DNA from: a virus
Lineage: Duplodnaviria > Caudoviricetes
IMG/VR virus record: IMGVR_UViG_3300038679_000217
Coordinates: 1-46,628 of that record
Length of the DNA: 46,628 nucleotides
Reading direction: 5' to 3' (one strand)
A model generated the notes under the pieces. The model did no database searches. It was not told the DNA's origin and worked only from the letters and a program-made list of their open reading frames with translations. A program made the position numbers and the translations under genes. Position 1 is the first letter of the stretch. Each line of letters begins with the position of its first letter. Positions 26,838 to 46,170 of this stretch are shown here, one piece after another.

Positions 26838-27532
26838 AAGTTTTCCGGTTTGCCAGTTGTAGAAAGCACTTTAAACTCAATCGCCCACACCCATGGGTTT
26901 TTATCCCAGGATGCTTCTCCATTGATTTCGCCCCAAAGCGTTTTAAATGATCTGAGATATGATGCACCAAAAAATTCTGCGTTTTCATTAGAGTGTAGCA
27001 TGCTGTGAATATCTAAAGGAGCTCCTTCTGCAAATGCACCACCTTCAGTAATATCCTGCAGCCTCTCAGGTTTTATGCTGACAATCTCCAGCCATCTCAT
27101 GGCAATATCTTTTGGCATAAATAAGGCCGGTCGTTTGTGCCATCCCAATTCGCCAAATTTTGCAGTTTTCTTTGGCAGCCATCCAGCATAAAACTGATGC
27201 AGGTAGTTATTGTCCCTGGTTAAATCGTGAAAGGTTTTGGTTGATTTATCATTCTCAGTTATTGTGGTCCAGTGGCCGTATGCGTAAAAAGTTTCTTTTA
27301 CCCAAAGCACATCACCCGGTTTGCCGTAAGGGCATTTTCCATCCATGTCAGTATGAAACTGGTCACTGGAAAAAGTGAAAGTGCCATCGTCATTCGCGAC
27401 ACCACTGCACATCCAATGATTCGGATTCTCATTTATTTCTTCCAGTCCTTTGGTCCTCCTGGTCATTTTTTTAATGTCACCAAGTATCGCCTGAACCATG
27501 GGCGTGCTAAATAATATCGGTCGTTCTTTCAT
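26834..27532 (-). CDS. Conserved phage protein (ASCH/PUA-like)
   Basis: MKERPILFSTPMVQAIL..K.MTRR, CPYG.PGD.LWVKET, ERLQDI, NPWVWAIEF. Confidence 0.8.
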   Translation of the reverse strand: MKERPILFSTPMVQAILGDIKKMTRRTKGLEEINENPNHWMCSGVANDDGTFTFSSDQFHTDMDGKCPYGKPGDVLWVKETFYAYGHWTTITENDKSTKTFHDLTRDNNYLHQFYAGWLPKKTAKFGELGWHKRPALFMPKDIAMRWLEIVSIKPERLQDITEGGAFAEGAPLDIHSMLHSNENAEFFGASYLRSFKTLWGEINGEASWDKNPWVWAIEFKVLSTTGKPENL

Positions 27533-27535
27533 ATC

Positions 27536-27949
27536 TCAATAGCTAAAAACAATCCGTTTATTTCCAACAACTACAGCGTTAATGGTATCATTGTAAAGGT
27601 CAGTTACAACGATCAGGCTAAACATATCAGGATGAGGCCTCAGCTTCCAGTTTTGTACTTTTACATTCAGGTAGGTTTCGAGCGCTGTAGAGTCAGGAAA
27701 ATCAGCAAGGCAACGGGTGCATGTTCTGTTATGCCTGTCAGGATCATCTTTCATAAACTGATAGGTAAATATTACCGAATCGTTGCAGTAAATAAGTTCT
27801 GTTTTCGATTCATGAGTCAGCTTCCACTCCGGATCTGATCTCATGTGAGAGCTTATAAAGCCTTTGCTTTTGCCGATGCCGATAATAGGCTGGGCGACGA
27901 GGCACTGTACTGATATGATCAGCATTATTAATAAAGCGGGTTTTTTCAT
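27536..27949 (-). CDS. Hypothetical exported protein
   Basis: Signal-peptide-like MKKPALLIMLIISVQCLVA. Confidence 0.65.
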   Translation of the reverse strand: MKKPALLIMLIISVQCLVAQPIIGIGKSKGFISSHMRSDPEWKLTHESKTELIYCNDSVIFTYQFMKDDPDRHNRTCTRCLADFPDSTALETYLNVKVQNWKLRPHPDMFSLIVVTDLYNDTINAVVVGNKRIVFSY

Positions 27950-28437
27950 GTGTAGTAGATTTCTTTGTTTGTCGATCTGAAAGGAAAAATTCCGAGCCGG
28001 TTCGATAGTTCATCGTCGGCCACTTTAAGCATCTGGCCAATTTTGGCCTCCTGTGCTTCATAGCTGTGGTTAGCCGTATGTGGCAGTACCTTTCGGAGCA
28101 AGGATTCCGTTTTGCCTATTATTTCACAGATTTCGTTGGTAGTCTTTAATGGAAGGATGGCCACGGCATTACCAAGCCGGGTAAGTGCATCGAGCCTCGA
28201 TTGCAACCGGTAATGATCGCCGCCTGAGGTTTTGTACAAAATAACTTTGTGCTGCACATAGTCGCTGAAAGCAGTTAGCAACCATACGCGGCGCAAAGCG
28301 CTTATATGCTGCCTGGCTTCCGTAAAGCTGAAGAATGAAGCATCCTCAACCGGTTCACTGCCGTTTTCGTTAAGAATCCTAGTCCTAACGGTGAAGTACT
28401 TTTCACCGTGGCCGATAAATGAGATAACGCGGACCAT
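27946..28437 (-). CDS. Hypothetical protein
   Basis: 163 aa ORF in operon register. Confidence 0.7.
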   Translation of the reverse strand: MVRVISFIGHGEKYFTVRTRILNENGSEPVEDASFFSFTEARQHISALRRVWLLTAFSDYVQHKVILYKTSGGDHYRLQSRLDALTRLGNAVAILPLKTTNEICEIIGKTESLLRKVLPHTANHSYEAQEAKIGQMLKVADDELSNRLGIFPFRSTNKEIYYT

Positions 28438-28438
28438 G

Positions 28439-28702
28439 TTACCAGATTTTGGAGAATGGTCTTACTTCAGTGCGGTTTAATCCGTGGGCTTCGCCGTTTT
28501 CATCTTCGATGATTATAGTTTGGTCGAAGATAGCGGTAATGCGGCCAGGCTCCCAGCAACTGTCAGTTTTGAACAGGCACTTATCGGTAACTCTCATATT
28601 CTTCTGAAACCGGTTATACCTTAGGTTTCTGATGGCCTCGAAAAGCACAAAAAGACAGAATATAACTACGATGGAAATAAGAATGTATTCTCTTGTGCTC
28701 AT
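28439..28702 (-). CDS. Membrane-anchored small protein
   Basis: N-terminal TM helix followed by SH3-like beta strands. Confidence 0.65.
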   Translation of the reverse strand: MSTREYILISIVVIFCLFVLFEAIRNLRYNRFQKNMRVTDKCLFKTDSCWEPGRITAIFDQTIIIEDENGEAHGLNRTEVRPFSKIW

Positions 28703-28968
28703 TGCAGTACCTCCTTCACATCAACCATTTCAGCCATGGCATAAATGCGTTCAAGGATAGAGAGCTGCAATTGATTCAAGCCAAAGTGCCTGTTAAAAAG
28801 GCTCCATTCGGTGGGGGTAAGTTCACTGGCTGCTTTGCGGGAAAAAGGTTCAATCTCTTCGCGGCATTCTTTCAGGTTTTTACTGATCAGCGATTTCAGT
28901 TTTGTAAGCTCCTCGTTAGAAGCTTTACTGAGGTCGATTATCTCAAACCTTAGTTCTGTTTTTTTCAT
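28699..28968 (-). CDS. Hypothetical protein
   Basis: 89 aa ORF; start lies within the 38-bp repeat. Confidence 0.65.
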   Translation of the reverse strand: MKKTELRFEIIDLSKASNEELTKLKSLISKNLKECREEIEPFSRKAASELTPTEWSLFNRHFGLNQLQLSILERIYAMAEMVDVKEVLQ

Positions 28969-29000
28969 CTGTTATTGTTTTAGGCCTGGGGAGGCGGGTT
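28963..29000 (+). repeat. 38-bp direct repeat copy 1
   Basis: TTTCATCTGTTATTGTTTTAGGCCTGGGGAGGCGGGTT identical to 29438-29475. Confidence 0.95.
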
Positions 29001-29032
29001 TGTATTAAAGCTTAAAGTAAAAAGTCTAAAGT

Positions 29033-29443
29033 TTAAAGTATGCCATCCAATGGGAATTCTACGACGTCAAATAATTTGTTAAACCATGGGTCAAAGCGTT
29101 TCCACTTTGGATCTAAAACCTCAGTTGTGAAAATAATTTGTGGAATTACACCCCATTTCATAGGATTGTTTTTTTTGTGAACAAGCACTTTTAATTTCAA
29201 ATCACCTTCGCCAGGTAGATTGTCCATTTCAGGGGAAAAATCTGAATAACGAAAGTCCAGTGGACAATCATCGATAATAAGTAATTGTGTATTTTCTGTA
29301 ATTTGATGATACTGGTAATGATTTCCATAAGCATCTTTTGCAGAAATGAAACATGTTTTTTCTTTTCCGACATACTCTGAAATCATATCAGCAACTCTTG
29401 TTTTTCCACTTTTCGGTGGTCCGATAAAGATTTTAGCTTTCAT
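29033..29443 (-). CDS. Small stand-alone P-loop NTPase
   Basis: GPPKSGKT Walker A, LLIIDD Walker B, IIFTT. Confidence 0.75.
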   Translation of the reverse strand: MKAKIFIGPPKSGKTRVADMISEYVGKEKTCFISAKDAYGNHYQYHQITENTQLLIIDDCPLDFRYSDFSPEMDNLPGEGDLKLKVLVHKKNNPMKWGVIPQIIFTTEVLDPKWKRFDPWFNKLFDVVEFPLDGIL

Positions 29444-29475
29444 CTGTTATTGTTTTAGGCCTGGGGAGGCGGGTT
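29438..29475 (+). repeat. 38-bp direct repeat copy 2
   Basis: Identical to 28963-29000. Confidence 0.95.
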
Positions 29476-29510
29476 ATTGTTAAGTAAAAAGTTTAAAGTA
29501 TTAGCGTTTC

Positions 29511-29834
29511 CTAGGTGCAGACGTAGCGGGTTGCATATCCTTCAGCATCGTTTACAAGTATGAGCCCTATTTTTAGCTCGATTACATCAGCTGAATTATT
29601 TTTTATAAAAGTCAGCTCCTTGTCAAGTTCTTCCTCCGTATATAATCGTTTTAGCCTGTCTCTTTCAAATTTATTGGCTAACTCATTAAATTCTTCAATG
29701 TCAGAACACCATCCATAATGCATTCTAAAAAATTCATTTTGATCAGTAAAGACTGCCTTAATAAAAAATGAGGCAAAACGCCAGCAGCTTATAGAAGGCT
29801 TATTCAATGCGGGTGATTTTACTTCGTTTGGCAT
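29511..29834 (-). CDS. Hypothetical protein
   Basis: 107 aa ORF. Confidence 0.55.
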   Translation of the reverse strand: MPNEVKSPALNKPSISCWRFASFFIKAVFTDQNEFFRMHYGWCSDIEEFNELANKFERDRLKRLYTEEELDKELTFIKNNSADVIELKIGLILVNDAEGYATRYVCT

Positions 29835-30008
29835 GGTTATGTTAATTTTGTTAATTTATCAAATGAAGCAACCAGGGTACTATACTTCCCCCGGTTGCTA
29901 CCAGCAGTTTATCAGGCTGCCTGCTTGTAGTTAATTGTGCCATTTATTTGGCTGTTCAGCCTCGAAAGGACAATGCTACAATTACGCTTCATCAAAGAAC
30001 TTGGGTTG

Positions 30009-30081
30009 TAGCAAGGGCAGGATTCGAACCTGCGACCTCCGGGTTATGGGCCCGGCGAGCCGACCACTGCTCTACCTTGCA
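30009..30081 (-). tRNA. tRNA-Met(CAT), initiator (fMet)-type
   Basis: TGCAAGG TA GAGC AGTGGTCG GCTC G CCGGG CCCATAA CCCGG AGGTC GCAGG TTCGAAT CCTGC CCTTGCT A; 1:72 mismatch, A11:U24, three G:C pairs in anticodon stem. Confidence 0.9.
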
Positions 30082-30092
30082 AAGGGTGGCAC

Positions 30093-30704
30093 TCAACCCG
30101 GAATCGGGGCCGGGGAATGCCGTATTCTTTCCCTGTTAGGGGACGTTAGGCAATGAAAAGTATTAAGGAATGCTATGTAAGCTGATTCGTGGTTCCAGAA
30201 TGGTTCCCATGGCAGCACATCGAGCCATGTGGCCGAGCCGTGCTTTATCTGGTCCTTATAAGTTTCTTTCTGATGGTGAAAAGCCTGGTATTCCATTTCA
30301 CACACTTCATTATCATAAACTTTAACAGCGTCCAGCAGATCGGTGTGAAGGTTAAATTTCTGGCAAACGGCATCCTTCAGGCGCTCTTCAATCTCGAAAT
30401 AAGCCTGCGCCAAAAGCGATTTAATCGGACGGATCACATCACCTGCCCATGTCTCCGGCGCATCGTGCATAAGGGCCGCAAATCGAAGCGGAACTGGTGC
30501 CAGCCATGCCACATGGCAACTATGTTGAGCAACTGAATAGAATTCAGGGAGGTTTCCGCCCCAGCGGCATATTTTCGAAAGCGAGCTGGCTATATCCTCG
30601 ATATCGATAAGCTGTGGATCCGGATCATAAAGATTGATCAGTTTGCCGCTGGTGGTGATCATGTGCCCCCGGGGAATATCGCGTAATGTGGCCGGAATAG
30701 TCAT
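30093..30704 (-). CDS. HD-domain phosphohydrolase (YfbR/YfdR-like)
   Basis: IEDIA..LS.ICRW.G...YSVAQHS..LMHDA.E..GD. Confidence 0.85.
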   Translation of the reverse strand: MTIPATLRDIPRGHMITTSGKLINLYDPDPQLIDIEDIASSLSKICRWGGNLPEFYSVAQHSCHVAWLAPVPLRFAALMHDAPETWAGDVIRPIKSLLAQAYFEIEERLKDAVCQKFNLHTDLLDAVKVYDNEVCEMEYQAFHHQKETYKDQIKHGSATWLDVLPWEPFWNHESAYIAFLNTFHCLTSPNRERIRHSPAPIPG

Positions 30705-31240
30705 TCGATGCCCTTCTCTTTAATGAAATTTGAGATATCAACCCGGTTACGGCCACCGATTTTTACAAATATGTTCGCCATGTGGTTGGCCACCGTATGC
30801 TCCGAGATAATAAGCTGATCGGCAATTTCTTTATTAAGCAGCCCACGGCTAACCAGGATCATAATTTGAAGCTGCCTCAGCGTGATTACGCCCTGATATG
30901 TAACTACTTCTTTGCAGCGTTTACCCTCGAATTCGCAACGGCCACGGATGCCACAGTCGAAGTACTCTGAATGATCGGTGCATTCGCCTTCCGTCGAATC
31001 CGGAATGGAATTACATCCACCAAATCGGCAAATACCATAAATTCGAAGCTTTTCGTCTTCAGGCACCGTCGCAAGGGTTTCCTGTGCCACGGTATCCTCA
31101 TCAAGAGTTTGCTGAAGAAAAATCAAATGTTCAGCCGGCATATCAGGAAACTGATATCTGTTCCCACTTTGAAGACTAAATAACTCTCTGCCATGTGCAA
31201 AGAATTCGAGGTTTGAATCTGTGAGTCCGGCTGGTATCAT
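30701..31240 (-). CDS. LuxR-type HTH regulator with Cys-rich N-domain
   Basis: GLLNKEIADQLIISEHTVANHMANIFVKIG; EYFDCGIRGRCEFEGKRC. Confidence 0.85.
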   Translation of the reverse strand: MIPAGLTDSNLEFFAHGRELFSLQSGNRYQFPDMPAEHLIFLQQTLDEDTVAQETLATVPEDEKLRIYGICRFGGCNSIPDSTEGECTDHSEYFDCGIRGRCEFEGKRCKEVVTYQGVITLRQLQIMILVSRGLLNKEIADQLIISEHTVANHMANIFVKIGGRNRVDISNFIKEKGIE

Positions 31241-31476
31241 GCTGCTGAGAATTTTTCCTTTTCAATCTCAAGTTCCTTTTCTCTCTGAATAATCTGAGAT
31301 TTTATTTCATTGGCAATACGGTAAGCTTCCGGAATTATGCCTTTTGTATCTTCAGCGTCACCCCTGAGAACCAGGTTTATTAAAGAAATACTAGCACCGG
31401 TTATTCGGCTTATTTCTTTTCGATATCCTCTTTTCAGATACTTTCTGAGGCAGGTGTAATGGTTTGTAGCTTCCAT
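31237..31476 (-). CDS. Cro-like HTH protein
   Basis: KEISRITGASISLINLVLRG helix-turn-helix; first gene of leftward operon, divergent from repressor. Confidence 0.7.
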   Translation of the reverse strand: MEATNHYTCLRKYLKRGYRKEISRITGASISLINLVLRGDAEDTKGIIPEAYRIANEIKSQIIQREKELEIEKEKFSAA

Positions 31477-31500
31477 GGTTAAAAACAACTATTGATTTAC

Positions 31501-31581
31501 TGTTTACAATCGTTTATATTTGTGTAATAATGTGCAAATATATGTAAACAATTAGGCATAAAGCAAGGATTTAGGCACTTA
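31501..31581. promoter_or_regulatory. Lysis/lysogeny switch: overlapping divergent promoters and operator-like repeats
   Basis: TATATTTG on + (31515-22) and on - (31535-42); IR TGTTTACA/TGTAAACA (31501-08, 31543-50); TTAGGCA at 31552 and 31571. Confidence 0.7.
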
Positions 31582-31613
31582 TTTTCGCTTACTCTCGAAA
31601 AAAGTTATCAACA

Positions 31614-32012
31614 ATGACAGAAACAACATTTAATCAACGATTTACGAAAGTTGTCAGTTTATTAAATTTAAAAACTGATGTCCAAATAAGCAAGAAACTT
31701 GGCATAAGTCGTCAGGAAGTTCAGAATTATAGAGGCTCTATGTCTCCAGGAATCGAAAAACTTGCGCTTATTTTAAAGGCAGTGCCATCCGTAAATCCGA
31801 TGTGGTTGATTGCCGGGGAAGGAAAAATGTTAAATGATAGTAATATGCTGTCGGAGCCATCTGCGATCTACCATAAGCTGGATGACGAAAATGACTTGAT
31901 AAAATTTGCCTGGAAAGAAGATAGGGAAGAGTTAAAGAAGCTGAGAGAACTGGTCAATCATTTAACAGAGGAATTAATAAACTGTAAGCCAAAAAGCAAA
32001 GCAACCGGTTAA
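31614..32012 (+). CDS. CI-like repressor (XRE HTH)
   Basis: ISKKLGISRQEVQNY HTH and VNPMWLIAGEGKML signature; no S24 peptidase domain. Confidence 0.85.
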   Translation: MTETTFNQRFTKVVSLLNLKTDVQISKKLGISRQEVQNYRGSMSPGIEKLALILKAVPSVNPMWLIAGEGKMLNDSNMLSEPSAIYHKLDDENDLIKFAWKEDREELKKLRELVNHLTEELINCKPKSKATG

Positions 32013-32150
32013 AATTACTGCATGGAAATGGAGTCTACAAAGGTATTTATAGCACATCTCTTTCGCTGACCAAATGAATAAGTGCCTGAATTTATTTATC
32101 AGGCGTAAGGTTTTAAATGATAAGTGCAATTCATCAACAAAAAAGAGGCC

Positions 32151-32302
32151 ACAGAGAAAACAGAGAAAGCTGAATGCTTAGAGAATTGGGAATAGTAGGA
32201 GGGTGGTTGAATCCCTCTCTTTCCGCAAATCACCTTTAAAGTATTAATAATTACCATTTTACAATCTTTAAAGACTGATTAATTTTTCTCTTTTTTCTCT
32301 GT
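32151..32302 (+). other. Putative attP: tRNA-Ser 3'-end core with arm-type repeats
   Basis: GAATCCCTCTCTTTCCGCA (32209-32227) = T-loop, T-stem, acceptor strand and G73; CAGAGAAA direct repeats (32152-69) and inverted TTTCTC(TGT) repeats (32283-302). Confidence 0.7.
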
Positions 32303-32328
32303 TTTTGTTTTAGGCCTGGGGAGGCATA

Positions 32329-33546
32329 ATGAACAAACAGATGATCAGAAGAGAAGTAATACTTCCAAAGTTGAACCATTGCAAGGGTGATCTCGCCCGG
32401 CAGTGGTTCATTTATTTTAGTGTAAAGGATCCTGCGACCGGAAGAATGCAGGTATTTCGGAAGTACGACGGGTTTGCTGAGCTAAAAACCCAGGATGAGA
32501 GGCAGAAACACGGTAAAAAGCTGATCAATACCTGGACAAAAAAACTAATGTCTGGATGGAATCCTTTTTTCGAGGCTGATATTGTAAAATATGCCAGCCG
32601 CATTAAGTACGATCAGGAAGCTCAAAAGCAGGGAAGACAAGTCGAGAGTACCCGAAATTTTGAGTATTATTCCTCTTTGTATCTCGATCATATAAATTCT
32701 ATCAAACTACGTCCAAGCACCTATACAACCTATAAAAGCAAGCTCCGGATATTCGGAATATACCTCACCGAGCGAGGCCTCGATAAATCGAACATACGCT
32801 TCTTTAACAACGAAACCATAAAGGAATTTAATGCATACCTGCGTAAAAAACGCGGACTTGAGGGAAAGGGAATCAATGAATACAATGAAGCCCTTCATCG
32901 GTTTTTTCGATATCTCATTGAAGAATTGAAATATATCACCGAAAACCCCATAAAAGGAATAAAGCATCTGAAAGAAACTAATAAGCCACACCTGGCATTC
33001 AACGACGTTTACATTAAACTATTGAGAGACAAAGTAGAAAAAAGTGACAAATACATATGGCTCATGTGCCGTATGATCTTTAGTTGCTTCACCCGGCCAA
33101 AAGAATTGCGGCTATTGCAGATCAAGCATTTTAATTTTGCCGATGGAACTATAGTGTTGCCGGCCGAGATCAGTAAGAATGGCAAAACCCGCCTGATCAC
33201 AATCCCCGATTACATGCTATCAATACTACTCGACAATAAGGTAAACACATTTCCGGATGATTTTTACTTTATGTCGCTCGATCGGCAACCAGGACCAAAG
33301 CCGGTGCATAAAAACTGGCTTTACCGTAAAATAAAACGATATTTTGTCGAATTAGGGTTCCCGAAGGGATATACCCTTTATAGTTTCAAACATACAGGCG
33401 TTCAAAAGCTTGCAAAAGCGAATGTAAACGTACTGTACATTCAGGGGCAGCTGGGGCATTCGTCGCTTGATGAAATGTACCCGTATATACAGGAGCTGTT
33501 GATGCAGAGCAACGATGAAATCAGATATAATTCACCCGAGATTTAA
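32329..33546 (+). CDS. int: Tyrosine recombinase / phage integrase
   Basis: RPKEL, SKNGK, YSFKHTG, QLGHSS....Y catalytic motifs; SAM-like middle domain. Confidence 0.92.
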   Translation: MNKQMIRREVILPKLNHCKGDLARQWFIYFSVKDPATGRMQVFRKYDGFAELKTQDERQKHGKKLINTWTKKLMSGWNPFFEADIVKYASRIKYDQEAQKQGRQVESTRNFEYYSSLYLDHINSIKLRPSTYTTYKSKLRIFGIYLTERGLDKSNIRFFNNETIKEFNAYLRKKRGLEGKGINEYNEALHRFFRYLIEELKYITENPIKGIKHLKETNKPHLAFNDVYIKLLRDKVEKSDKYIWLMCRMIFSCFTRPKELRLLQIKHFNFADGTIVLPAEISKNGKTRLITIPDYMLSILLDNKVNTFPDDFYFMSLDRQPGPKPVHKNWLYRKIKRYFVELGFPKGYTLYSFKHTGVQKLAKANVNVLYIQGQLGHSSLDEMYPYIQELLMQSNDEIRYNSPEI

Positions 33547-33792
33547 AGACTTATTTTCCCTGAGCAACCAGGCAAAAGAGATGGTGCCTGATCTGTTTTC
33601 CGGAGAGTATTGATATCCCTCTAAAATCATCTTATCGAACAGCTCCTTCTCTGAAAACTCTCCCGGGTAAAACCTCGAGAAAGTCTGAAACAGCTCTGTT
33701 GAAGTAAGTTTCAATGTATAACTTTCACGGCTGGCAGCCGGAAAGTGTGACTTAAAAACATCGAAAATTTTCTGAAAGGTCTCCGTATCCAT
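33532..33792 (-). CDS. Small hypothetical protein convergent with integrase
   Basis: MDTETFQKIFDVF.. from ATG 33792; upstream part of ORF 33532..33936 is better explained as structured leader. Confidence 0.6.
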   Translation of the reverse strand: MDTETFQKIFDVFKSHFPAASRESYTLKLTSTELFQTFSRFYPGEFSEKELFDKMILEGYQYSPENRSGTISFAWLLRENKSLNLG

Positions 33793-33793
33793 G

Positions 33794-33911
33794 GTGCGAC
33801 ATATTTTATGAAGAAAAACCCCCGGAGCCTGTCGCACCTGATCATAGACCAAATACCAGGCCCAGGCCTGGCTGCCCCGGGGATTACCCCTTTGATCTAT
33901 GAAGTGCGACA
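33794..33911 (-). ncRNA. Structured leader / C4- or CI-like antisense RNA element
   Basis: TGTCGCAC..TCATAGATCAAA/TTTGGTCTATGA..GTGCGACA..CCGGGGG-TTTTT..TGTCGCAC, starting just after a TATCTTTG -7 box (33915-22). Confidence 0.6.
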
Positions 33912-33921
33912 ATACAAAGAT

Positions 33922-33945
33922 AAAAAAATCCGGCATTAGCCGGAT
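33922..33945 (-). terminator. Terminator of tail operon
   Basis: ATCCGGC-taat-GCCGGAT followed by T run. Confidence 0.75.
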
Positions 33946-33949
33946 CCTT

Positions 33950-36148
33950 TTATCGTCTCATTAAATCTATCTCACATTCGCTTATTCGGTCGTCCAGAAT
34001 ATTAAACCTGATTTCCCTGATCAGGTAATCGTGACCGAGTAACCGATACCATTTAAACCAATCGATCTGTGAAAGCTGTAAAGGAGATAACCAGGCTTTT
34101 ATGGTAAAATATCCCGGATTGGCCACCATCCATTCTACCCAGGCTTTATGGCGTTTCAGCCACAATCCGTATTCTCCTTCCCAGTGAAGGGATAGGTTTG
34201 CAGTATGATTTTTCTTATCAATCCTGACACCATAGTAATTATAGACATCATTGGTGCCTAACGGATATAAATTGTCCTGACTGTCGAACTCCATACCCCT
34301 GTAAAAAAGTAACGATCGGGCAAAATCTGCCTTGAAATAGTCCGGCAATCCGTCAAAATTACCGGCACGCATAGTTTTAGGAACAAGCCATCCACGAACA
34401 GCAGGAGAGGAAAGGCATGTATCCTGGTGACTTCCATGATTCATCATTACCGCACAAACATCGGTTGTAATATCAAGCAACGGATCCTCATTATTATCAC
34501 CCTTTAGTTCTGCAAAAAAGTTTTTGCTGTAAAACATCCAGTTTAAAATTCCGGCATCGGGGTCGTAATTGTAATACCAATACTCTTTCCAGAAACTTAT
34601 ATAATAACAGTCATTTATCTGATTCCCTGTGCTGGGAAGAAGATTCCAGATTGATACTACTCCTTTAAAAGTAAGACCAGAAAGGCTTTTGAAAGATTGG
34701 CTAAAATAGTCGTCTCCGGTAATGTTTTGCCTGAGGATGTAGCCATTATAAGCTGAGGCCTTTAATACAGGAATAGAAATAACGACTCCCGGGAATAAAA
34801 CAGCATTTCTATCGGAAATTATATCTTTCAAATATTTAAACTCAAGTGTTTTTGTATAGCTATTGTACTTTAGACCAATAGCAAACAATTTGCAAAGATT
34901 TGTCAGATAATCAGACAATAAATCATCTGATACATGATCGGCCAGGTTGAAACCTTCGCGGGGCTGGATAAGTTCACTGGTGATAAAGCTGTTTTCACCA
35001 AACAACTCAAAAATAACAAGCTGTCTCAGATCATCGTCTTCAAATACATTATTAATTACGTTGAGTCCAAGTTCGTTGAAAGCCTGTTTCATCACATAGG
35101 CAAGATAAGGAAAGGGAGAGTAAATGTTAAAGGCCGAGAATGTTTCGCCTTCGATTTCGCCCGACATACCAACCTGAAACCGGTTATCTTTATAGTAATT
35201 TAATATAGGGAAGTATTTCTCGTAAGTTTCCTTGATGGATACATGGTCAATACTAAAAGTATCATCCTCAAGTTTATCCATAAACTTTGAGTTTTCGACA
35301 GGAAACATCACGTAATCACTATCCGGATAAAGATAAACTGAAGTATAGAGCAATCCCTCCCATGAGTGGTAAACTCTTATTCTTGAGCCGGCCTGTAAGG
35401 TAAAATCGATAACAGGATCACCAACAAAATATAATTGCCACGATAATTCATCGCCAATGGTTACAGGAACATCATATAAAAATATTTGGAGCTGGTTGTT
35501 TTTTGAAAAATATGACGATGAAAACACTTCACCATTTTTCATTAATCTTATCTGAACATACTCTGACCTTTTGTGCAAATATTTAAAATCAAAAATAACA
35601 GTAACAACTGTACTCGATGCGCTTGTAAAGATTGTGCCTGCATTAAGTTCGCTTTCTGTATTTACAACGATATCATCAAAAAGCAACCACCTGATAACGG
35701 GATCAGGAGTGGTTGTTCCAAACAGCACTTCATCTTCCGACATTATAGAATCAACTCTCAAAATAAACGATTCTTCACCTCTCACGCCACCCAGGTCTAT
35801 CTCGTTGAGTTTTTTTGTTTTAAGATCAACAGCAAGATCGCCCGTTTCAATCGGAGCGCTGACTTCTATCGTTTTCTCATCCGCATTTTCAATTGTGCAG
35901 GTACCGCTGTATTTCAGCGGGCCATACTCAAGGTAAAACGGTTTTTTTTGTGGTTTGGCGCCAAAACGTGCCGGCCGGTGTATAAAACCGGTTTCTTTCT
36001 TCATAGCCGGGGTGTGCGGAAGGTTGAAATTAAAGATAAACGAACCGGGTATCCGGCCATTATCTAAAAATAACGGCGACCGCAAGGTAACCGGTATTTC
36101 AGTATCTCTTGTTTCGGCCCAGGTAGAGCCTATTTTTATTTTGAGCAT
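33950..36148 (-). CDS. Tail tip / baseplate hub-like protein
   Basis: 732 aa, last gene of tape-measure operon; GSFIFNFNLP.T N-terminus; function by position. Confidence 0.6.
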   Translation of the reverse strand: MLKIKIGSTWAETRDTEIPVTLRSPLFLDNGRIPGSFIFNFNLPHTPAMKKETGFIHRPARFGAKPQKKPFYLEYGPLKYSGTCTIENADEKTIEVSAPIETGDLAVDLKTKKLNEIDLGGVRGEESFILRVDSIMSEDEVLFGTTTPDPVIRWLLFDDIVVNTESELNAGTIFTSASSTVVTVIFDFKYLHKRSEYVQIRLMKNGEVFSSSYFSKNNQLQIFLYDVPVTIGDELSWQLYFVGDPVIDFTLQAGSRIRVYHSWEGLLYTSVYLYPDSDYVMFPVENSKFMDKLEDDTFSIDHVSIKETYEKYFPILNYYKDNRFQVGMSGEIEGETFSAFNIYSPFPYLAYVMKQAFNELGLNVINNVFEDDDLRQLVIFELFGENSFITSELIQPREGFNLADHVSDDLLSDYLTNLCKLFAIGLKYNSYTKTLEFKYLKDIISDRNAVLFPGVVISIPVLKASAYNGYILRQNITGDDYFSQSFKSLSGLTFKGVVSIWNLLPSTGNQINDCYYISFWKEYWYYNYDPDAGILNWMFYSKNFFAELKGDNNEDPLLDITTDVCAVMMNHGSHQDTCLSSPAVRGWLVPKTMRAGNFDGLPDYFKADFARSLLFYRGMEFDSQDNLYPLGTNDVYNYYGVRIDKKNHTANLSLHWEGEYGLWLKRHKAWVEWMVANPGYFTIKAWLSPLQLSQIDWFKWYRLLGHDYLIREIRFNILDDRISECEIDLMRR

Positions 36149-45000: not shown

Positions 45001-46170
45001 TTATTTTTCGATAAACTTCCCACCACCATAATTGTAATGATGCACACTCCCTGGTTTGCCGTTGTGGGTATTTTCCCATACTTCTACGATAGTTTTATCT
45101 ACCCATATATGATAAGTTGAAATGTTTGTAAACTCATTGTTGTAAATCTTTGTCCCCTTTGCCGGGCCTAAAGATGGATAAGTATAACCTACCCCAACGC
45201 CACGGTCGCAGTCAACAAAAAGATTGTTATAAACCTCAATATCATTCGAGTAAGCCCCGCCTATCCTTATGGCCAGCGTTGAGCCTAAGAAGTGGTTTTG
45301 CCGCACCTTTATACCATTTCCCCGCTCTATATGCAGCGCACAAGTAACCGTATTATCATTCACAAAAGTGCAATACTCAATAATTCCCGTTGCATTGTCA
45401 GATGTACCGGCCCCGCTGTTAAGAATCATGATAAACTTGTTACCTGCGCCGTTGGTACGGTCAATGGTGGTATGATGCACCCAGAATCCGTTATAATTGC
45501 CATCCAGCTGAATGCCGTCTCCTGATGAGACTTTTTGATCTGAATTAACAAAGTATCGCCGGTTAATATCTGATATTTTGCAAATCCCGATCTCAATCCC
45601 AGGTATATTCGCAAAGTAAATTCCATCAAGGGCTACATTCTTAATTTCAGTATTAAGAATTTTAAGGTCTTTATTGTAGAAACCATAAATCCCAAAGCCT
45701 GCATTGTTGGTATTATGTGCATTATACAATAAGCAATTGTTCACTGTATTATTCTGACAATATTTAGAGGCAGTTCCAATCAGCCCGATCAGCGCATAGG
45801 CATTTTTATTGCCATCTATTTCAAAATTATCGATAAAGCAATTATCCGCCTCAACCCTGATGGCATAGCCTGATCCGGTATAGTTGAATTTTGCCCGGCT
45901 TATAAGGTTGTAGTATCTTGTCGATTTACCATAAGTTGCAATCGTCACATTCTTAACATTCACATAAATCTGCACGGAAGAACTGTAAACAGTTTCAACC
46001 TTCTGCAGGTATGTAAAACCAGCCTGAATCGTAAAATCCTGCCACGAATCGTATGGATTGTCGATTGACCCGTTTTGACCCGTTGCTGTGTTGGTAGGAT
46101 CAATGTAAATGGTTGCCGAAAATCCGGCAAATGTTGCCAGGATAATTAAAATTGTGAATAGGTTTTTCAT
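45001..46170 (-). CDS. Right-handed parallel beta-helix protein with signal peptide
   Basis: MKNLFTILIILATFAGFSA; YIDP..G.NGS..NPY; Asn-ladder repeats, DGIY, GDGIQL. Confidence 0.8.
   Translation of the reverse strand: MKNLFTILIILATFAGFSATIYIDPTNTATGQNGSIDNPYDSWQDFTIQAGFTYLQKVETVYSSSVQIYVNVKNVTIATYGKSTRYYNLISRAKFNYTGSGYAIRVEADNCFIDNFEIDGNKNAYALIGLIGTASKYCQNNTVNNCLLYNAHNTNNAGFGIYGFYNKDLKILNTEIKNVALDGIYFANIPGIEIGICKISDINRRYFVNSDQKVSSGDGIQLDGNYNGFWVHHTTIDRTNGAGNKFIMILNSGAGTSDNATGIIEYCTFVNDNTVTCALHIERGNGIKVRQNHFLGSTLAIRIGGAYSNDIEVYNNLFVDCDRGVGVGYTYPSLGPAKGTKIYNNEFTNISTYHIWVDKTIVEVWENTHNGKPGSVHHYNYGGGKFIEK

Follow-up and report, generated by a model that had tools for sequence, protein, structure and literature searches.

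A putative lock-and-key RNA switch linking early transcripts to integrase translation in temperate phages

Short RNA-RNA complementarity is used in the lysis/lysogeny programme of phages P1 and P7, in the form of the c4 RNA, and the release of a cis-repressed message by an RNA acting in trans is the principle behind engineered, synthetic riboregulators. Among natural systems, the CI RNA of phage P4 likewise governs lysis and lysogeny through short complementarity between phage RNAs, and IsrK, a small RNA (sRNA) of the Salmonella prophage Gifsy-1, acts in trans to free the start of an inactive, structured mRNA (PMC4825925); in the hybrid RNA of the type VI retron Vpa2, too, a repressed coding RNA is released by a second nucleic acid (10.1101/2025.10.22.683967). 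Here, we describe an arrangement of this kind in a 46.6-kb virus record (IMG/VR record IMGVR_UViG_3300038679_000217; the whole 46,628-nt stretch is hereafter called the window). Judging from predicted folds, the leader of its tyrosine integrase gene (int) probably folds on itself and hides the translation start, as a lock, whereas a co-varying complement of the leader in the early region, the key, would pair with it in trans and switch int translation on.

Several features set this arrangement apart from its closest counterparts. IsrK is a discrete sRNA that shares promoter and locus with its target and acts on orf45-anrP (PMC4825925), whereas the key is part of the early operon, encoded on the strand opposite to the leader at a distance of 3 kb (circle) or 34-47 kb (prophages), and the target is an integrase. 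The P4 CI RNA is processed from the very transcript that it represses and causes termination (PMC4825925), whereas a positive effect on int translation is predicted here. Unlike P4 CI and P1 c4, where both partners belong to one transcript, the key and the leader are on opposite strands, with cI and attP between them. In the retron, the key is reverse-transcribed DNA and the output is a toxin (10.1101/2025.10.22.683967). No Rfam match was found on the leader or the copies (window positions 27000-34000 and 13 related loci), and no such integrase lock-and-key is described in the literature searched, mostly without subscription papers or the motif lists in the supplement of PMC5737381. By analogy, the arrangement appears to work like anti-antisense activation of the IsrK type, while being a member of none of the families tested.

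Most tRNA-inserted integrases lie behind a host tRNA, apart from the early genes, so that the timing of Int synthesis is an open problem, to which the published answer is transcriptional autorepression (PMC2951348). In lambda, as here, Int synthesis is coupled to the establishment of lysogeny and to induction, but through promoters (pI, pL), N antitermination and sib, a cis element distal to int (PMC2951348); in the window, int cannot be co-transcribed with the early genes, and the link would be an RNA duplex formed in trans. IntS of KplE1 resembles the present case in that a tRNA precedes int on the same strand and Int arm sites lie upstream of int, but it represses its own promoter, yielding a low constant level, and that account mentions no antisense RNA (PMC2951348). 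Autoregulation of the KplE1 type and an RNA switch could coexist here. Between the att core and the leader, a scan that does not cover Bacteroidia promoters found no sigma-70-like promoter.

A first-pass annotation, made from the letters of the window alone, had singled out a 21-nt repeat and proposed that it couples the early transcript and the int leader in trans. Sequence search bears out three exact copies, at 28975-28995, 29450-29470 and 32305-32325, all in plus orientation, as well as their distances from start codons (6 nt from the minus-strand ATGs at 28968 and 29443, and 3 nt from the plus-strand ATG at 32329), and the hairpins that it had drawn, with 4-bp stems and loops of four C or four G, appear in the predicted folds. 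The window holds no fourth match with up to 3 mismatches, and none of 100 shuffles gave any match. Allowing for 3 differences, the likeness between copies spans 33 nt, the added part being confined to the 5' side of the leader. The early copies are complementary to the leader's loop and 5' arm and to nothing beyond. A block of 38 nt is identical between copies 1 and 2, which are also alike further upstream and lie on either side of a single 136-aa gene, and the three closest relatives (G001, G002 and G003; L and G numbers are our labels for loci and genomes) have one early copy each; thus, copy 2 is probably a local duplication. Copy 1 of the key stands at the same place before the same gene in L005, L006 and L015. 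No terminator-like site was found near either early copy.

That annotation had suggested looking for co-conservation and covariation in related phages, and both are found: each early copy matches the leader of its own phage even where the letters of the stem differ around the G-rich loop. We collected 21 leaders, selected for a visible G-rich loop and belonging to integrases of about 30-64% identity. The loop consists of four G in 20 of the 21, and the flanking stem pairs vary, with U-G wobbles and, from one clade to another, a change of C-G into G-C. Upstream DNA was also read for further integrase loci, 14 of 36 having no visible G-rich loop and L089 and L009-L013 not being interpretable. 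In a first set, all 8 hairpin-leader elements with both ends on record carry a same-strand copy in the early operon, downstream of a LuxR-like gene and just before an ATG; this copy is the top match in 6 and the second in 2 (in G228 behind an AT-rich match, in G135 behind the leader of a neighbouring integrase). A second set was picked by integrase likeness (40 of 80 loci and two genome loci examined), and here the copy is the top match in 8 of the 11 loci that bear a LuxR-like gene (7 distinct), with scores of 40-62 against a 99.9th percentile of 23-28. Copy and leader are 42.8 kb apart in G442 and on different contigs in G421, G227 and G122, the last of these by eye. In total, pairing is seen in 16 elements on one record and in 3 split over contigs, with integrase identities down to about 30-35%. 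The key stands 13-23 nt before an ATG in every pair, and in 11 pairs its match to the leader stops no more than about 2 nt from the 3' arm of the apical stem, short of the A-rich start region.

Conversely, 17 scanned loci without a LuxR-like gene showed no convincing copy, many of them being without their early end and several having uncertain starts. Seven hairpin-less integrases (four in G030 and one each in G090, G200 and G036) have neither a LuxR-like gene nor a copy in the stretches examined, where the G090 match is an attR repeat and G200 and G036 are partial. No partner was assigned, the assemblies being incomplete, in L016/G004, L018, L020, L021, G417, G272, G155, G149, G349, G440 and G443. 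Broader scans returned little: an exact 18-mer scan of viral contigs gave one match, in L004, an unrelated RNA-phage-like contig with maturation, coat and replicase genes in that order; a scan with the single int protein gave none; and a scan with the int-leader pattern gave 3 viral matches (2 known, 1 unrelated) and 1 among 401 genomes. The 9 matches to the early-copy pattern comprise 2 known relatives and 7 sequences without likeness to the window's genes, which were taken as chance. Named phage records contributed distant integrases only, among the matches listed (15, at about 26-27%).

The copy on the integrase side forms the apex of a long predicted stem, the candidate lock, with a folding energy of -25.4 kcal/mol (z -3.07), which 1 of 200 shuffles equalled. 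The stem persists when folded behind a tRNA, as in read-through, and in 21 of 21 leaders the predicted fold covers the start region. Since pairing between a U-rich and an A-rich arm could be compositional, arms were swapped among 18 leaders, three near-duplicates being omitted. In 11 of 18 rows the native pair of arms came first; the summed energy of -278.9 against -175.8 +/- 12 was reached in none of 20,000 permutations; within the window's clade alone, 64 of 5,040 permutations did so, and L005 ranked 15th. The lower stem of the leader is sequence-specific. Stems over starts also occur upstream of the distant integrase genes of L171, L206, L210, L213, L245 and L073, with no partner found in the available DNA. 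Cis locks over int starts may be more widespread than the key.

Two in-frame ATGs follow the apical hairpin, 12 nt apart. The first, ATG 32329, is in frame in all 8 DNA loci, 3-7 nt after the hairpin, and supplies the N-terminal methionine of 22 of 26 proteins. The second, ATG 32341, encodes Met5, which is nearly invariant and lines up with the starts seen in distant clades, and it has the better start score in 8 of 8 loci; scored against Bacteroidia-type starts, ATG 32329 and its equivalents fall at the 0-1st percentile. In 13 of the 21 leaders, 17-25 nt separate the loop from the start, and no in-frame ATG is closer; the exception to this long spacing is formed by the 8 leaders that have an upstream ATG at a spacing of 4-7 nt. 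Ribosomes of Bacteroidia ignore Shine-Dalgarno sites and rely on upstream adenines and low structure (PMC13000457), and in the loci examined a Shine-Dalgarno-like motif precedes 6 of 219 starts, compared with 90 of 1,769 internal ATGs. Given this scarcity and the spacing in those 13 leaders, the purine run of the leader is unlikely to be a Shine-Dalgarno site.

Pairing energies and mismatch polarity were computed on the first 11 pairs. By net binding against 16 leaders, the cognate leader comes out ahead or level in all 10 rows (in three of them level at one decimal; L015 counted as cognate to the identical leader of L006), with some cross-talk within the window's clade. On key binding, the predicted cost of opening positions -14 to +5 of the start falls from 7.3-14.0 to 1.1-3.5 kcal/mol in all 11 pairs. 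The key is predicted to spare the start region in the case of ATG 32341 and of the distant clades, not in that of ATG 32329. Because the key match stops at the apical stem and would free the A-rich start, and because ATG 32341 outscores ATG 32329, activation is favoured, and the modelled sign is likely to be activation rather than block. Thus, the coupling proposed in the first-pass annotation is well supported by co-variation, but the sign that it proposed for the effect of lytic mRNA on int, a block, is probably reversed, given that the leader is predicted to be already locked in cis and the key to release the start.

From the architecture, complementarity, co-variation and position of these elements, which are read off the sequences, we infer the following course of events. 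On the circle, int would be transcribed through attP from the repressor promoter, and in the prophage by read-through from the promoter of the host tRNA or tmRNA; read-through after integration, which the earlier annotation had envisaged, fits the integrated relatives. The leader stem would keep this message untranslated until the early promoter fires, upon infection or induction, when the C-rich loop of the key would nucleate on the G-rich loop of the leader and the A-rich tail of the key would displace the 3' arm, which would open a region of about -15 to +5 around ATG 32341. Repression of the early promoter would remove the key and so confine Int synthesis to the times at which recombination is needed. 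Pairing of key and leader would also mask the start of the early gene that follows the key, and the scarcer RNA would be the regulated one, i.e., leaky early mRNA in the lysogen and int mRNA after induction.

A number of observations weigh against this scheme. The conservation of ATG 32329 is unexplained under activation, and the key raises the opening cost of this ATG from 12-14 to 26-31 kcal/mol; ATG 32341 is itself a weak start, at the 1st-18th percentile. The fall in opening cost is partly a matter of construction for any binder of the 5' arm, and in four pairs the gain shrinks when the opened region begins at -18 and is nearly gone at -20 (19.4 to 15.6, 15.1 to 13.9, 12.7 to 11.1 and 12.2 to 11.9 kcal/mol). 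The 19 elements include kin and are not independent; in the second set, L249 and L193 have a LuxR-like gene without a copy and L199 is ambiguous, and the complete provirus G441 has no good second match. The keys of G135 and G359 have no hairpin of their own, so that loop-loop kissing is not universal. Mismatch polarity shows no G-U bias (7 G-U against 8 A-C) and is uninformative. Finally, close strains (sequencing runs X6-X8) differ from the window at 32306-32308, inside the 21-mer, and what may be their early copy, a contig of 41 nt, is window-like; therefore, the extension appears to tolerate mismatches.

Alternatively, the early operon could be the main target: in the lysogen, int-leader RNA transcribed from the promoter of the host tRNA would mask the start of the gene behind the key and damp leaky lytic expression, adding an RNA layer to immunity. 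The P4 CI RNA provides a precedent (PMC4825925), in most pairs the start region of the downstream early gene falls within the predicted duplex (in the window, its AUG does), with the key always shortly before an ATG, and in G227 the gene behind the key is a primase. However, this scenario, which we consider unlikely, leaves the sequence-specific stem over the int start unexplained, the downstream gene differs among phages, and the A-rich tail would resemble a start region anyway, as a mimic of the displaced strand. Silencing of the early gene by leader RNA, the other direction contemplated in the first-pass annotation, is plausible as a second effect of the same duplex.

It seems improbable that early mRNA instead blocks int translation, at least in the window's clade, with ATG 32329 as the true start and the purine run as its ribosome-binding site. 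The in-frame conservation of this ATG near the hairpin in all 8 loci and the rise in its opening cost upon key binding fit such a block, and rpsR in Bacteroidales may use Shine-Dalgarno-competent ribosomes, a possibility that the source itself calls unproven (PMC13000457). Against this, the 13 leaders without an upstream ATG keep both the loop and the key, the start score of ATG 32329 is at the very bottom of the range, and this ATG is already locked without the key, at the cost given above, so that no ON state would exist.

The first-pass annotation had also raised the alternative of a shared protein-binding site. On this view, a protein of the phage (the LuxR-like protein, CI or Int, for instance) would recognise the repeat as double-stranded DNA or as a single RNA hairpin. 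The core does have 4+4 palindromic symmetry, key and LuxR-like gene occur together, and the 5' arm of the leader overlaps the likely arm-type Int repeats, where a role of the DNA can coexist with one of the RNA. This explanation is nevertheless disfavoured, and we hold it to be very improbable: opposite to an operator, the spacer is constant in 20 of 21 leaders while the half-sites vary, the match extends to one side only, and the G135 and G359 copies are not palindromic. Furthermore, the sites are always on oppositely transcribed strands, with none in the cI-cro interval, and, in a single contrast that concerns the LuxR-like protein only, the helix-turn-helix (HTH) of the G227 protein closely resembles the ones in G414 and G421, whereas the G227 site is different and follows an int leader. 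A neutral duplication or recombination relic, which the apparent local duplication of copies 1 and 2 might suggest, is scarcely credible, being contradicted by the co-variation of leader-specific copies at a fixed place in 19 elements with integrases as little as about 30-35% alike.

Activation by the key remains, then, the reading that we prefer; as far as sequence comparison goes, the integrase lock-and-key is likely to be real and co-evolving and its sign positive. We lean, if only somewhat, towards the broader proposal that it represents a family of natural toehold-like switches in temperate phages of Bacteroidales, in which the early mRNA would itself serve as the key, acting over the whole length of the prophage, and be muted in return, and phage-specific pairs would limit cross-induction among co-resident prophages. 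If true, this would be an mRNA-mRNA switch for site-specific recombination that comes with natural compensatory variants as testable pairs, and a source of compact translation switches, partly orthogonal to one another, for use in Bacteroidia, where ribosomes take no notice of Shine-Dalgarno sites.

Table 1. Coordinates of the key, the int leader and the surrounding features in the window
Feature	Positions	Strand	Remarks
Early antisense key, copy 1	28963..28998	-	hairpin 28984-28995 with four-C loop; A-rich tail is the start region of the 89-aa gene
Early antisense copy 2	29438..29473	-	before the 136-aa gene
89-aa gene, function unassigned	28699..28968	-	start region inside the predicted duplex
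Phage tRNA-Met	30008..30081	-	early region, upstream of both early copies
Cys-rich LuxR-type HTH gene	30701..31240	-	Pfam GerE; marks the antisense-bearing early module
Cro-like first early gene	31237..31476	-	by position, without family match; 52-54% kept in L005, L006, L015
CI-like repressor	31614..32012	+	same strand as int, 5' of attP; PHROG regulator/repressor matches
Tandem 9-10-nt repeat	32151..32170	+	inverted relative to 32284-32302 (inverted repeat I16); similar repeats in relatives
attP core, 3' end of tRNA-Ser gene	32209..32228	+	20-nt identity with integrated relative L018
int leader long stem	32285..32356	+	predicted pairing between a U-rich 5' arm and the A-rich start region with the first codons
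Apical 4-bp hairpin	32314..32325	+	four-G loop 32318-32321; predicted kissing/nucleation site
Upstream in-frame ATG	32329..32331	+	conserved in the clade; key would block it
Tyrosine integrase from likely start (Met5 of 405-aa ORF)	32341..33546	+	PF00589, PF02899, phrog_1

The window carries tail, head, lysis, primase and methylase genes besides the CI-like repressor and the integrase (Table 1); nearly all genes are on the minus strand, cI and int being on the plus strand. The 20-nt match in L018 comprises the end of a tRNA-Ser(TGA) gene and the next bases, and given its location between cI and int, the window is taken to be an attP circle, i.e., an excised temperate phage. With its PF00589 domain and an att core at a tRNA 3' end, the integrase is a tyrosine integrase of a tRNA-targeting temperate phage; after integration, int would sit behind the host tRNA, far from the early genes. 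The tandem repeats at 32151-32170 and 32284-32302 are likely arm-type Int sites, and the second set overlaps the 5' arm of the leader. Bacteroidales is the likely host group, the host itself being inferred from named relatives (Lentimicrobium, Massilibacteroides) and protein names. Matching DNA occurs in groundwater and hydrocarbon metagenomes from 7 studies, with three sequencing runs as possible sources of the window; none of the sequencing runs listed as containing window DNA is an RNA run.

LuxR-type homologues lie upstream of the early copy in relatives as well. The protein of the 89-aa gene has a weak likeness, by hhalign (49%, E 1.8e-4), to the product of the gene that follows the copy in G421, and its Atlas search, with a best score of 0.78, was uninformative. 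The 136-aa gene between the two early copies (29033-29443, minus strand) has an N-terminal P-loop-like motif and no match in the relatives searched, and looks like an inserted cassette.

Several individual elements show further peculiarities. The key comes directly after a tRNA-like 3' end in G135:C43 (about 83850-83900), G359:C20 (about 196400), L185 (about 6640) and L188 (about 4200), where processing of the tRNA might set it free with a new 5' end. In G135:C43, related integrases in tandem, with near-identical leaders at 45643 and 87053, use one tRNA site, and one key could serve both. In G359:C20, the LuxR-like gene is split in two frames (197500-198054), and a reverse-transcriptase-like gene beside tail genes (164194-165180) was noted by eye as a possible diversity-generating retroelement. 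C-rich, key-like segments precede an ATG in the first 40 nt after the LuxR-like gene in L147 (G208) and L154 (G085), with no matching integrase found in those genomes.

A small gene without family match (33532-33936, minus strand) converges on and overlaps the 3' end of int and is a candidate directionality factor. Two divergent matches to the -7 element of the Bacteroidia promoter consensus, a short distance apart, were noted by eye in the interval between the cro-like gene and cI, at 31515-31522 (plus strand) and 31535-31542 (minus strand). Just 3' of the phage tRNA-Met, on the early strand, a strong hairpin at 29868-29898 is followed by a weak U run and may be a processing or attenuation site.

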